Shown piece by piece: positions 46,629 to 63,625 of a stretch of 64,000 nucleotides of DNA. Each line of letters starts with the position of its first letter. Positions within the stretch are counted from its first letter, which is position 1. Origin of the DNA: a virus. Position numbers and translations under genes: made by a program. Under the pieces are notes generated by a model. It searched no databases. It worked only from the letters and a program-made list of their open reading frames with translations, and was not told where the DNA came from. The stretch is taken from positions 1 to 64,000 of IMG/VR virus record IMGVR_UViG_3300045116_000451. The stretch is one strand, 5' to 3'.

Positions 46629-47039
46629 TCAAGCCCTCTTTTGCCACGCGAGGTACGAGAAGACGGCGGCCGCGATGGCGCCGACCGCGGTCACGCCGCC
46701 CATGATCTTGATGGGCAGCATGGACTTGTCGATGTTGGCCTGCACGGTCGGCCAACTCTGGTTGACCACGTACTGGATGAGCCCCTGCGCGCCCCCCTGA
46801 AGCAGTCCCTGCAGGTCAGAGACCGCGTCTCCCATCCCGCAGCCGCGAAGGCCGGGGGGCACATGCGAGCGCAGCTGGGACATGTAGGTGTGCGCTCCGA
46901 GGCCGTCCAGGAAGCGGGGGCCGGCGGCCGCGGGCGAGTACATGGCCTGCGGGATCGCCGGGTTGTGCGTGCCTGCCTGGAAAGCTTCGAACGCAAGGCC
47001 CGGCGTGGGCTGGACCGGCTGCTGCGGGAAGTAGCTCAT
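46629..47039 (-). CDS. Virion-like membrane protein (LDGLG, LRGCGMG, C-terminal TM)
   Basis: MSYFPQ start; TM followed by KRA. Confidence 0.65.
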   Translation of the reverse strand: MSYFPQQPVQPTPGLAFEAFQAGTHNPAIPQAMYSPAAAGPRFLDGLGAHTYMSQLRSHVPPGLRGCGMGDAVSDLQGLLQGGAQGLIQYVVNQSWPTVQANIDKSMLPIKIMGGVTAVGAIAAAVFSYLAWQKRA

Positions 47040-47665
47040 TTCTGCCTGCTCCTTCTCACCGCAGCATACGCCTCGTCGATCGCCTTGAACAGCTTCGCGT
47101 CCAGCTCCGCGCCTTCCTTGTCGCGCCCAGCTCGGTCTGGGTGGTAGCGCGCCACGAGCTTCTTGTAGGCGCGTTTCACGTCCTGGTCGTCGGCGTCTGG
47201 ATCGACCCCGAGCGTTCTGTAGGCCCACGCGAGGTCACCGTTCGACCCGGGCGAACGAACGGGAGGGCGCCATCGCTTCACGTGCTGCGCGGCCGTACGC
47301 ATGCACGGAAAGCACACGACCGTGGCGTCCATGGCGACCAGGCAGTGCCCAACGCACACGGGCATCCCGCAGAGCAGGCAACAAGCAGCGGCCTGGGCGC
47401 CGCACCACTCGTCGGGCTTTCGCTCGAACGCGCACACGTGCGGGCCATCGACCGGCAGCACCCACTTCGAAGGCGCGAAACGAGCGACGTTCGCGGCCCA
47501 GGGCAACAGGACCGTGAGAAGCAGACGCTGCGCGCTTTCGTCCAGGTACGATTCGATAGTCTGAGCGAGCGAGCCAAGCTGCGCGAGCGTGTGCAAAGAT
47601 TCAGCGGTTTTGGCGCTCGGACGGCCACCCGCCATCGCTTGCCGGAACATGTCGAGAAGAGGCAC
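47036..47665 (-). CDS. J-domain (DnaJ-like) protein with Zn finger
   Basis: AYRTLGV..VKRAYKKLVARYHPDR..FKAIDEAY; Cys cluster. Confidence 0.88.
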   Translation of the reverse strand: MPLLDMFRQAMAGGRPSAKTAESLHTLAQLGSLAQTIESYLDESAQRLLLTVLLPWAANVARFAPSKWVLPVDGPHVCAFERKPDEWCGAQAAACCLLCGMPVCVGHCLVAMDATVVCFPCMRTAAQHVKRWRPPVRSPGSNGDLAWAYRTLGVDPDADDQDVKRAYKKLVARYHPDRAGRDKEGAELDAKLFKAIDEAYAAVRRSRQK

Positions 47666-47683
47666 GCGATCGAGCTTACCACA

Positions 47684-47911
47684 TCAGGGCCTCGGCTGGG
47701 CGCGCGAAACCCATTCGCGGGGAAGGTAGCGGGCTAGGTAGATGCCCGCACCGAGCCCAAGCGCGACCGACCCCGCTGCTACGATCCAGACCGGGATGCG
47801 CCGCTGCGAGAACTCGCGCACGTCCTCGGTTCCGAGCCCGGCGAGCAGCCCCGCGGCCGCGAGAAGCTTGTCGGTCACGTGAGGGTTGGCGAGCAGGATG
47901 GACGCGCCCAC
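47684..47911 (-). CDS. Small membrane protein (LLANP, LAGLG, TM)
   Basis: WIVAAGSVALGLGAGIYL TM. Confidence 0.6.
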   Translation of the reverse strand: MGASILLANPHVTDKLLAAAGLLAGLGTEDVREFSQRRIPVWIVAAGSVALGLGAGIYLARYLPREWVSRAQPRP

Positions 47912-47917
47912 GGCAGC

Positions 47918-48820
47918 TCAGTACCTGCGTGCGCCAGCGCGCAGCGTGAACACGTCCCGCGACAGATCGACAGGAGGCTGCCCAAGACCCCGGATGCCCT
48001 TGTACGTTGCGCTGCTTGAAGCGCTCGCCGGCCGCGGCATGGGCGGCCGGAAGGCCGCGCTTGGCTGGGCGCTGTAGCGCGGCGGCGACGGAGCGCGTTG
48101 CATGGACGACATCGTGGCCGATGCGGGTGCCGGCCCGAAGGCCCCGGGGCTCGCGCTCGGCGCGGCGTAACTTGCCGAGGGCAACGTTCCGCCCCAGCGG
48201 CTGGCCGTGCTCGAGATCGCTCGCGACGCCGCGCGCCAGGCCGAACCGATGATGCCCTGGCTGCCAGCGGGCTGCACGCCCGAGGGCATCGCGGTCTGCG
48301 AAACAGGCGCTACGTAGCCGGGGCCTGCCGGCGTGACGCTACCGGGCGCGAACGGCCCCAAGCTCGCGCCGGGGGTCGTGCCCGCTGGCTTGCCAGGTCC
48401 GATCCCGCCGCCGCCTGGCAAGGGCATGGCGCCCGGCAGCGGGCCGCCGCTCGGCCATGCCCCGCCTCCGGGCTCGGGCAAGGCGCTCCAGGGCGACCCG
48501 GAGGGAAGGTACCCGCCGCCACCACCGCCATCCCCTCCGCCTCCACCTCCGCCGCCCCCTTGCTCGGCCGCGACTTCTTCGGGGGACTTTTTCGTGAGGA
48601 AGTGACAGATCAGGCCGGCGAGCAGCCCCGCGGCAGACCCCACGGCCGCTCCCTTGCCCCTCGATGGCTTGTAGGAGAGAGCGCCGATGCCTGCGCCACC
48701 AGCCAGGCCTGCGCCGAAGCACGCCAGGCTGCGCCAGTGCAAATCGAAGAAGCTCGGCTGGGCGCCGGTCGCGTCCGTGCCGAAGCCAGCCAAGGCCACG
48801 ATGCAAGAGGGACAGGTCAT
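47918..48820 (-). CDS. 2-TM Pro/Gly-rich membrane protein (LAGFG, IRGLG)
   Basis: Two hydrophobic helices, poly-G and P-rich tail. Confidence 0.65.
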   Translation of the reverse strand: MTCPSCIVALAGFGTDATGAQPSFFDLHWRSLACFGAGLAGGAGIGALSYKPSRGKGAAVGSAAGLLAGLICHFLTKKSPEEVAAEQGGGGGGGGGDGGGGGGYLPSGSPWSALPEPGGGAWPSGGPLPGAMPLPGGGGIGPGKPAGTTPGASLGPFAPGSVTPAGPGYVAPVSQTAMPSGVQPAGSQGIIGSAWRAASRAISSTASRWGGTLPSASYAAPSASPGAFGPAPASATMSSMQRAPSPPRYSAQPSAAFRPPMPRPASASSSATYKGIRGLGQPPVDLSRDVFTLRAGARRY

Positions 48821-61944: not shown

Positions 61945-61947
61945 GAC

Positions 61948-62691
61948 TCAGTACCCTCCGGCGTAGGCAGGCTTTCTTTTGGTCGCGACGGAGATTCCGA
62001 CCACGACCATGATGGCACCGGCGCCGAACCACGCGATGACCGGCAGGCCGAGGAACGGCTTCGTGAGGAAGCCCATGACGCCACCGCCAGGTGGCTGCAC
62101 GACCGGCGGCGTGGTCGGTGGCGTGTACGTCGGGGGCACGGTCTTCACCGGCGGCGTGGTCGGTGGCGTGTACCCGCCCCCGCCTCCGACCGTGACGCAC
62201 TTGTTCGTCTTCGGGTCGAGCTTCTGGCCGGTCGGGCACATTGGCGCTACAGGCGGCGTGTAGCCGGGAACTTCGCACGACTCCCTGCTCGGGTTCCAGA
62301 CCTGACCGGTCGGGCACTCGGGCACAAGCTCGACCGGCTCCGGCGGGACGCTTGAAACAAGGCCCTCGCACGTTCCGGGGCAGGCGGCTTCGCAGTTGGG
62401 ATCGCGTTCGCACATGCCCTGGCAGTTGAAGATGCACGTCGCAACCGCGGGATCGGCGCCGAGTCCATGCAACGACGATGGACGAGCCCGACGCAGGTGC
62501 AATCCCCACGGCAGGCCACGACGATCAACCACGTTGTAGATGTGCGCACCGAGTCCTTCGTCGCCGAGTCCATCAAGCGACGTGCCCAGGGTAGTCGGTC
62601 CGCGGAAGATGCCCGTTTCGCCAAGGCCGCTCAGCACACCCGCGCCTCGCCGTCGAAACGTATCCCTCGTGTAGAAGATGCCTTGTGCCAT
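61948..62691 (-). CDS. Membrane protein with four GLG motifs, Cys repeats and TM
   Basis: MAQGIF..LSGLG..LDGLG..DEGLG..LHGLG; CPTGQ x2. Confidence 0.7.
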   Translation of the reverse strand: MAQGIFYTRDTFRRRGAGVLSGLGETGIFRGPTTLGTSLDGLGDEGLGAHIYNVVDRRGLPWGLHLRRARPSSLHGLGADPAVATCIFNCQGMCERDPNCEAACPGTCEGLVSSVPPEPVELVPECPTGQVWNPSRESCEVPGYTPPVAPMCPTGQKLDPKTNKCVTVGGGGGYTPPTTPPVKTVPPTYTPPTTPPVVQPPGGGVMGFLTKPFLGLPVIAWFGAGAIMVVVGISVATKRKPAYAGGY

Positions 62692-62702
62692 GTCCGTGCC
62701 TT

Positions 62703-63245
62703 TCACCACGCGGTCGCGTGTTCGCGCTTTCGCTTGATGCCAACGATGAGAGCGCCGACGGCAGCCAGACCGACCGCGCCCGCGCCAAGGTAGAGCGGGT
62801 CCTTGTACCAGGGGACCTTGCCCGCGGGCCCGACGCCTGGCCCCGTTCGGCCAGCGAGCTTGCCGTAGTAGCAACCTGCCCAGGCCGTGTAGTCGGCTTG
62901 CATCCCGGCGCAAGCAGCCGACGCCTGAGCCATGAGCGCCGAGTACTCGGCCGTCTTCGAGGGGTTCGCGGCGATGTCCGCCGCCATCCTCGTGTTGAAC
63001 GCGACGCAGTCGGCGTGAGCCTGCGGGTTCGAGCTGACGGGAGCACAAGCGGCCTCGACGCCCGAGCCGATGCCGGGAAGAACGCCGAGGCCCTCGAGCG
63101 CCGGCATCCTGACGATCGGCTGCACGACGAAGTTTCCCTGCCGGCTGTCTTCGCGGAAAACCGGGCGCGTGTAGATCGGGCCGCGAATGTACGGCCATCG
63201 AAGCCACTCGAAGTACGTCGGGTTGAGGATGCGCCGGTGGCTCAT
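62703..63245 (-). CDS. Membrane protein (ILNP, LEGLG, C-terminal TM)
   Basis: ATGA coupling; TM followed by KRKR. Confidence 0.7.
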   Translation of the reverse strand: MSHRRILNPTYFEWLRWPYIRGPIYTRPVFREDSRQGNFVVQPIVRMPALEGLGVLPGIGSGVEAACAPVSSNPQAHADCVAFNTRMAADIAANPSKTAEYSALMAQASAACAGMQADYTAWAGCYYGKLAGRTGPGVGPAGKVPWYKDPLYLGAGAVGLAAVGALIVGIKRKREHATAW

Positions 63246-63625
63246 CGTCGCTTCCCGTGGCGCCGGCGGCGGCGCTTTCGGTTGGGGCTCGCGCTGCCAG
63301 TTCCGCGGTACGCCGCGTAGCCGGCGGAGACGATGGGGCCGCCGAACAGGCCTCCCCAGAACCAGCCGTGCTTGCCGCCGTGCGCCTTCTTGCCGATGTA
63401 CCAGCCCATGGCCGCGCGAAGAGCGCCACCGACGAGGAGCACGCCGGCCAGAATACCGAGGGCCACCATCTGCCCTCGCTTCGAGACTTGCTGCGGCTCG
63501 ACAGCACCAAGGCCCGAGAGCCGGGCTTTGAGAGCCTCGCCGAAACGCATCGGCCGCAGGAAGAGCGCGGGCCTGCCGAACGAGAACGGCCCAACCGGGG
63601 GCCATGCCTGCCCGAGAGCGTTCAT
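63242..63625 (-). CDS. 2-TM protein (LSGLG, ASPN-basic tail)
   Basis: Two hydrophobic helices; NRKRRRRR. Confidence 0.7.
   Translation of the reverse strand: MNALGQAWPPVGPFSFGRPALFLRPMRFGEALKARLSGLGAVEPQQVSKRGQMVALGILAGVLLVGGALRAAMGWYIGKKAHGGKHGWFWGGLFGGPIVSAGYAAYRGTGSASPNRKRRRRRHGKRR

Follow-up and report, generated by a model that had tools for sequence, protein, structure and literature searches.

A Gly-Leu-Gly tag on mostly unrelated membrane proteins of a large lake-water virus, and a conserved transglutaminase-fold enzyme as its possible reader

The window analysed here is a 64,000-nucleotide stretch, positions 1-64,000 of the IMG/VR record IMGVR_UViG_3300045116_000451 (95,653 bp in all), from a large uncultured lake-water virus of bacteria. 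From 46.6 kb to beyond the window's end, it carries a block of genes whose mostly membrane-bound products share a short peptide of the form hydrophobic-x-Gly-Leu-Gly, which we call the tag. The record has a G+C content of 67% and no terminal repeats were found in it, and CheckV estimates the contig to be about 66% complete. The capsid region of this virus is present in several lake-water metagenome runs, and no RNA dataset is listed as holding it. A self-trained codon-usage caller yielded 126 genes covering 90% of the contig. For counting, the tag was defined strictly as [LIMF]xG[LFM]G and the block as the genes from 46629 to 65679.

All genes of this block (46.6-65.7 kb) lie on the minus strand, and they comprise three or four genes of capsid size, an extremely basic protein of 877 amino acids (aa), a DnaJ-domain protein and some 17 small proteins, the majority of which have a single C-terminal membrane helix followed by an Arg/Lys tail. 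Almost none of the block proteins matches Pfam or PHROGs, and neither assigns a function to any of them. The block genes listed here carry the tag or a looser form of it.

46629..47039, minus: 136-aa tail-anchored protein; helix at aa 107-131; LDGLG at aa 44 (46896-46910)
47684..47911, minus: 75-aa membrane protein; LAGLG at aa 23, in a GLG column that 12 of 16 orthologues in related viruses retain
47918..48799, minus: 293-aa Gly/Pro-rich membrane protein; LAGFG at aa 3, IRGLG at aa 269
52721..55354, minus: 877-aa very basic protein with KRGRKG repeats, a weak DUF6582 match and two membrane helices; a core gene
57192..58232, minus: 346-aa membrane protein; a helix begins at AVGLG (aa 194), and 7 of 12 orthologues have GLG there
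58248..59801, minus: 517-aa tail-anchored protein, rich in Cys and Pro and ending in a basic tail; VLGVG twice, at aa 51 and aa 432
60701..61549, minus: 282-aa tail-anchored protein; AQGLG at aa 13, LLGLG at aa 23, LWGLG at aa 245 (helix start)
61948..62709, minus: 253-aa tail-anchored protein; LSGLG at aa 26, LDGLG at aa 45, (DE)GLG at aa 50, LHGLG at aa 80
62703..63245, minus: 180-aa tail-anchored protein; LEGLG at aa 50, then LPGIG
63242..63625, minus: 127-aa membrane protein with a basic tail; LSGLG at aa 36
63622..64000, minus: 3' part, within the window, of the gene for a 203-aa protein that runs to contig position 64233; LQGLG at aa 14, MAGLG at aa 35, LKGMG at aa 61

All three copies in the 203-aa protein (contig 63622-64233) are encoded beyond the window end, where the next two genes add three copies (contig 64235-64939) and one copy (contig 64936-65679; VSGLG, which fits a looser first position only). 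The 877-aa protein carries its copies (MGGFG, AAGMG and AAGLG) in a C-terminal tail of G[FLM]G and GEY repeats at aa 715-829, and its homologues contain repeated units of the type aaaGMGEYF. GLG frequently stands at the very start of the C-terminal helix, as LWGLG does in the product of the 60701 gene. Four of the tail-anchored proteins (58248-59801, 59698-60393, 60701-61549 and 61948-62709, minus strand) also contain repeated Cys-rich modules of the form CP-x-GQ...C.

Every pentapeptide listed in an earlier sequence-only reading of this DNA, which took the tag for an adenovirus-like maturation or docking signal, is found in a called gene at the place given there. The strict pattern of that reading occurs far above chance, but several of its own examples (AAGMG, AVGLG, VLGVG, AQGLG, KLGLG and RFGLG) miss the first position. 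Across the genome, the strict tag occurs 24 times against 5.3 expected from whole-protein shuffles. Because the block is rich in Gly (12.6%) and in helices, shuffling was also confined to windows of 10, 15 and 25 residues, and the block still holds 19 matches against 2.7-3.0 expected, a count that none of 1000 local shuffles reached; the enrichment over a shuffled Gly-rich background that had been proposed as a check is thus present. A first-order model predicts 9.7 GLG tripeptides in the block where 24 are seen. The 19 matches are distributed over 11 proteins, which are mostly unrelated, as had been claimed: there is one clear pair of paralogues among the tagged proteins (the products of 60701-61549 and 59698-60393, 75% identical over 128 aa), along with weak similarities of the 58248 product to this pair and of the 63242 product to that of 63622.

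The excess is a property of the block, since the other 102 genes hold 5 strict tags against 3.8 expected (p 0.34). Outside the block, the tag or a looser form of it is seen in the following genes.

12433..13224, minus: SGNH/GDSL hydrolase; LFGLG at aa 238, then a basic C-terminal tail
13304..14074, plus: SLT lytic transglycosylase; domain at aa 49-162, KLGLG at aa 208, directly before the hydrophobic C-terminus
17185..18336, minus: 383-aa membrane protein that starts M-x6-RFGLG-PV-LPGLG
18339..18674, minus: 111-aa protein; FAGLG at aa 9

The SGNH hydrolase has a further AVGLG at aa 52, which adjoins the catalytic GDS block and is unlikely to be a tag.

At the level of DNA, the 8-mer GGGCTCGG is over-represented (23 against 7.6). 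In the contig and the related loci described below, CTC is the codon for 65-70% of the Leu residues that precede Gly (46% for Leu overall), and GGG is the codon for 31% of the Gly residues that precede Leu (18% for Gly overall). Within the motif, codon choice is no different from that in Leu-Gly and Gly-Leu pairs at large, so the excess of the 8-mer is a consequence of the peptide and not its cause. There is no avoidance of GGCC, CCWGG or other short palindromes either, and a cause of the tag at the DNA level was rejected on these two grounds.

Relatives of the virus were gathered through one gene of the block, the product of which is a candidate capsid protein.

51834..52601, minus: 255-aa capsid protein candidate; the strongest codon bias of the contig; 412 homologues; no tag in this genome

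The 412 homologues lie on metagenome contigs of up to 177 kb, and an alignment of 24 of them led to 21 IMG/VR loci on contigs of 38-182 kb, one of which is a duplicate, leaving 20 that are non-identical. Among the related records, several carry direct terminal repeats and count as complete, with sizes of 111-179 kb, and in some relatives the capsid candidate is duplicated in tandem, with two homologues on one 134-kb contig. Across the related loci, the strict tag occurs 154 times against 38 in local shuffles (138 times without the duplicate locus), and the excess is individually significant (p<=0.05) in 15 of the 21. A single-sequence pattern scan of IMG/VR gave no match.

Pooling these loci resolves the tag further. 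GLG is seen 336 times against 105 expected, and the residue between the two glycines is highly specific, Leu being enriched 4.6-fold, Met, Phe, Val and Cys 1.6- to 1.7-fold and all others about 1. The flanks are more weakly constrained, with Ala, Leu, Val or Met two residues before, Ala or Ser one before, and Ala, Glu, Gln or Asp after, followed by Tyr. G[LM]G is denser in tail-anchored proteins than in proteins without a membrane helix (5.7 against 1.6 per 1000 aa). By position, 154 copies precede the first helix, 69 follow the last helix (mostly in the large basic protein) and 63 fall inside helices. The first 60 residues hold 54% of the non-membrane copies against 26% expected, which bears out in part the earlier statement that the motif usually ends a short N-terminal leader, but the other sites are in linkers, in tandem repeats and where the C-terminal membrane helix begins. 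The commonest protein start in the pooled data is M-S-Y, and M-S/T-Y/F opens 49 of 520 proteins, 24 of which have G[LMF]G within 40 aa. The small block proteins diverge too fast for BLAST to link them to the copies in relatives, and within orthologue families the GLG columns are kept where the flanks are 18-43% conserved. A GLG column that is retained amid fast-evolving flanks behaves as a selected short linear motif would, and judged from these sequence statistics the tag appears to be a real, selected short signal common to mostly unrelated membrane proteins of a virion-like block.

Maturation proteases that read a consensus site are textbook knowledge for adenovirus, poxviruses, African swine fever virus (ASFV) and the tailed phages, and the earlier reading had identified the tag with the consensus of the adenovirus protease (AVP; adenain, MEROPS C5), which cuts at (M/I/L)XGX-G and (M/I/L)XGG-X. 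The tag is a literal subset of the first of these site types, and the cleavage site in adenovirus pVI, IVGL-G, is an exact instance of it (PMC4246237). The two systems are also alike in that a short consensus with Gly, and with a hydrophobic residue four positions upstream, recurs across many particle proteins, some of them very basic and associated with DNA. The match is narrower than had been proposed, however, as the middle residue of the tag is specifically Leu. The first site type, [MIL]xGxG, is enriched in the block (23 against 11.4) and not in the rest of the genome, and the general adenain consensus shows no excess genome-wide (69 against 62), with 35 against 21 within the block. The second site type, [MIL]xGGx, is not enriched, with 30 against 32.7 genome-wide and 15 against 11.4 in the block, and in the pooled data hydrophobic-x-GGG stands at a ratio of 1.0. 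As to the clan CE protease for which the sequence-only reading proposed to search the full genome, no match to Peptidase_C5, C48 or C57 (PF00770, PF02902, PF03290) was found at E<=1 in the contig, which is about 66% complete, and no match to PF00770 or PF02902 in four relatives rated 100% complete, though in both cases profiles can miss remote members; no other peptidase family was found among the proteins of the contig. Because the adenain consensus and the xGG sites are not enriched genome-wide and no clan CE match is found, the adenovirus-like system suggested earlier is not upheld, and on the evidence of sequence the tag does not belong to the adenain system.

The same reading saw no protease, which holds for the window, but a candidate lies 3.2 kb past the window end, adjoining the last of the tagged genes.

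contig 67242-67841, minus: 199-aa transglutaminase-fold protein; a core gene

This gene is present in all ten related virus records searched. On its own, the 199-aa protein matches PF01841 weakly and below the cut-off (E 0.042, 14.6 bits against a cut-off of 23). Many of its 244 homologues have a precomputed PF01841 match, and among 28 aligned family members 15 match that model, the best at 4.5e-9. Three motifs are invariant in the 28 sequences: DCD (Cys125), HV (His158) and DPVAG (Asp175). The structure model has a pLDDT (predicted local distance difference test score) of 87. Its Foldseek matches include the putative Cys protease 3isr and PNGase at a probability of 1.0, and TgpA, LapG, the CPR-C4 protease and PeiW at about 0.9-1.0, in both cases with TM-scores of 0.4-0.5 only; TGase and transglutaminase 2 are also among them. 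A profile of the enzyme family gave no meaningful match among PDB sequences. Taken together, the model and the invariant residues predict a transglutaminase-like fold with a Cys-His-Asp triad, and this fold and order of residues (Cys..His..Asp) set the candidate apart from adenain. Comparable in fold class are the bacterial transglutaminase-like cysteine proteinases (BTLCP) such as LapG, which cuts the membrane-associated LapA at a di-alanine site, a motif of small residues. The present enzyme differs from these in lacking a match to the BTLCP family model, and LapG is a cellular, periplasmic protein where this one is viral.

Within a collection of phages, the only match to the enzyme is gp34 of SSIP-1 (Salisaeta icosahedral phage 1), at 28% identity over 117 aa (E 2e-3), a protein annotated as 'structural protein'. 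The best structural match in BFVD is a 304-aa viral protein (E 2.7e-9), which is likely to be gp34 since gp34 also has 304 aa. SSIP-1 is a tailless membrane-containing phage, and its own G[LM]G copies lie in gp34, between the enzyme domain and the membrane anchor (aa 211-213), and close to the start of two structural proteins, gp37 (aa 34-36) and gp53 (aa 31-33). Its genome of 44 kb contrasts with the 110-180 kb of the virus group described here, and gp34 is membrane-anchored where the enzyme here has no anchor. The enzyme is the sole shared part: when eight block families were compared by profile with 24 SSIP-1 proteins, the probabilities stayed below 7%, and a tblastn search of the phage collection with two capsid-block proteins returned no match.

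We infer that the 199-aa enzyme is a protease and that it reads the tag, and we would put the probability that the tag is a recognition or cleavage signal of this enzyme at roughly 0.4. This reading is favoured by the conserved enzyme, the SSIP-1 homologue of which is annotated as structural. Under it, hydrophobic-x-Gly-Leu-Gly followed by Ala, Glu, Asp or Gln would be a short linear signal on proteins of the particle membrane, namely the mostly tail-anchored proteins with their C-terminal helix and Arg/Lys tail, the large basic protein and probably the lytic transglycosylase. The tag sits in the flexible non-membrane part of these proteins, with the helix between it and the basic segments. 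It is probably the DNA that the basic tails and the 877-aa protein's basic N-terminal half face, and if they do, then the tags would all be found across the membrane, on its shell side. The enzyme would cut at or next to the tag during assembly. The cut might fall between Leu and Gly as in adenovirus or after Gly-Leu-Gly, the two being equally possible. Papain-fold enzymes usually select at P2, and Leu (then Met or Phe) between the glycines would suit such an enzyme with a hydrophobic P2 and a cut after the second Gly. A prediction of the complex between the enzyme (aa 30-199) and the first 100 aa of the 61948-62709 protein scored 0.00 in a run without controls, which speaks neither for nor against this pairing.

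The tag might in addition serve as a targeting leader, as in the internal proteins of phage T4, where a short N-terminal leader on unrelated proteins directs them into the particle. The T4 capsid-targeting sequence is removed by the gp21 prohead protease at L-x-E, so that the leader ends in a protease site. T4 differs in its motif, in using a serine protease and in having a tailed particle without a membrane, and many of the tags described here are internal, repeated or C-terminal.

Several observations weigh against this reading. The link between tag and enzyme is one of co-occurrence and neighbourhood only. Transglutaminase-fold proteins also comprise cross-linking enzymes, glycanases and non-enzymes, and in this clade the enzyme itself has neither a tag nor a membrane anchor. 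Some relatives show a weaker excess (the whole genome of G010 has 16 against 9.1), and in the late genes of SSIP-1 the excess is marginal (6 against 2.1). Some tags stand only 3-5 residues from the start codon, although distances to the N-terminus are approximate, as the start codons are those of our own caller, and others form 3-5 tandem copies about 10 residues apart. For tags so near the start and copies so arranged, a motif for multivalent binding would be as good an explanation as a cut site, or a better one.

That the tag stays uncleaved and serves in docking or assembly is nearly as likely as that it is a cleavage tag, though we still think it unlikely when taken singly. Here, the tag would bind a pocket in the capsid shell, a scaffold or a chaperone, recruiting tail-anchored proteins and tying the inner membrane to the shell, much as the short Gly/Leu-rich cargo-loading peptides of encapsulins do for their cargo. 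The tandem copies, with a period of about 10 residues, are found both in several of the small proteins and in the large basic protein's tail, and copies within 3-5 residues of the start would leave too short a propeptide. If the basic tails bind DNA, then all tags are on the shell side, and the capsid candidates have no tag in this genome. Against this explanation, the capsid candidate gives only a poor model in which to seek a pocket, and the conserved Cys-His-Asp enzyme would be left without a role.

It is improbable, in our estimation, that GLG has no specific reader and is simply a by-product of Gly-rich linkers, of the packing of small residues in helices and of leaders of shared descent. 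Predicted membrane helices do contain 63 of the 386 pooled G[LM]G copies, often where the helix begins; Gly is abundant in the block, and the related loci are not independent samples. Against this, the excess persists under 10- to 25-residue shuffles and under the first-order model, Leu alone is strongly favoured between the glycines, GLG columns are conserved where their flanks are not, the carriers are mostly unrelated, and a cause in the DNA is excluded.

A shade less probable again is a model in which the enzyme is a true transglutaminase or another modifying enzyme, and the tag together with a nearby Gln (as in QAAAGMGQ) marks sites that are cross-linked or modified. Gln is enriched 2.6-fold at -4 and 2.1-fold at +1 relative to the motif, tails rich in Lys are common, cross-linking transglutaminases belong to the fold family, and two glycosyltransferases flank the block. 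Most tags in the small proteins have no Gln nearby, however, and the conserved core of Gly, Leu and Gly offers no reactive side chain. That a true adenovirus-type system with a clan CE (adenain/Ulp1-like) protease is encoded elsewhere in the genome is highly improbable, since the fit to the first site type and the likeness to the pVI site stand against the negative profile searches of the contig and four complete relatives and the missing genome-wide enrichment given above.

Returning to the enzyme as reader, the type of virus in which it would act can be outlined from the capsid candidate, if faintly. The model of the 255-aa protein is of low confidence (pLDDT 53), and its best structural matches are the capsid proteins of SPV1, HHIV-2, P23-77 and HCIV-1, at Z-scores of 4.6-6.0, which are in the chance range and come without sequence similarity. 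These are viruses with vertical single jelly rolls, the Sphaerolipoviridae and relatives (VP16/VP17 in the case of P23-77), and like such membrane viruses the block combines several adjacent capsid-size genes with many small membrane proteins. A single-jelly-roll capsid of the membrane-containing virus type is thus suggestive only.

Put in full, the picture would be of a widespread and undescribed family of membrane-containing bacterial viruses of 110-180 kb that mature their particles with a transglutaminase-fold protease cutting a hydrophobic-x-Gly-Leu-Gly code, a picture we offer tentatively and would not yet bet on. That dozens of fast-evolving tail-anchored proteins carry this code is a part of the same proposal and is put forward with the same reserve. 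We know of no description of such maturation in tailless membrane-containing viruses of bacteria, and the open-access papers searched gave no account of this motif or of a phage maturation protease that is transglutaminase-like or has that fold. Maturation proteases with a consensus site are in themselves already known; a transglutaminase-fold enzyme working with this tag in membrane-containing phages would be a new form of such a system. If the enzyme is the reader, then it would represent a new enzyme class in virus maturation, with an adenain-like specificity that is probably convergent, and the code would be a convergent counterpart, built on a different fold, of those of adenovirus, poxviruses and ASFV, and the first in a membrane-containing phage. 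The tag also marks which of the fast-evolving orphan proteins probably belong to the particle membrane, and so offers a practical handle for annotating a virus group that is large, common (412 capsid homologues, in lake water and other metagenomes) and otherwise unreadable.

Two further genes of the window deserve mention, one inside the block and one outside it.

47036..47665, minus: DnaJ-domain protein with a Cys-rich N-terminal half, inside the block; in 17 related loci; without a tag
38027..42208, plus: 1393-aa protein; nothing in it is recognised apart from a phage-integrase (tyrosine recombinase) domain at aa 323-539

The DnaJ-domain protein may recruit host Hsp70 in assembly. Genes for replication and recombination lie outside the block and encode RecT, a YqaJ exonuclease, two SF2/SNF2 helicases, SSB and RusA. 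No packaging ATPase, portal or tail gene was recognised by Pfam among the proteins of the contig. Elsewhere in the genome are the lytic transglycosylase, the SGNH hydrolase and the two glycosyltransferases already mentioned, and a Cas12f-like protein of 633 aa (contig 81776-83677, minus strand) with a Cas12f1-like TNB domain. The G+C content climbs to 73% in the stretch from 20000 to 30000, compared with about 66% elsewhere; encoded there are a ComM/Mg-chelatase-like ATPase and several proteins of AAA type, each about 500 aa long. Towards the end of the contig, at 92223-94581, are three neighbouring paralogous pentapeptide-repeat proteins.

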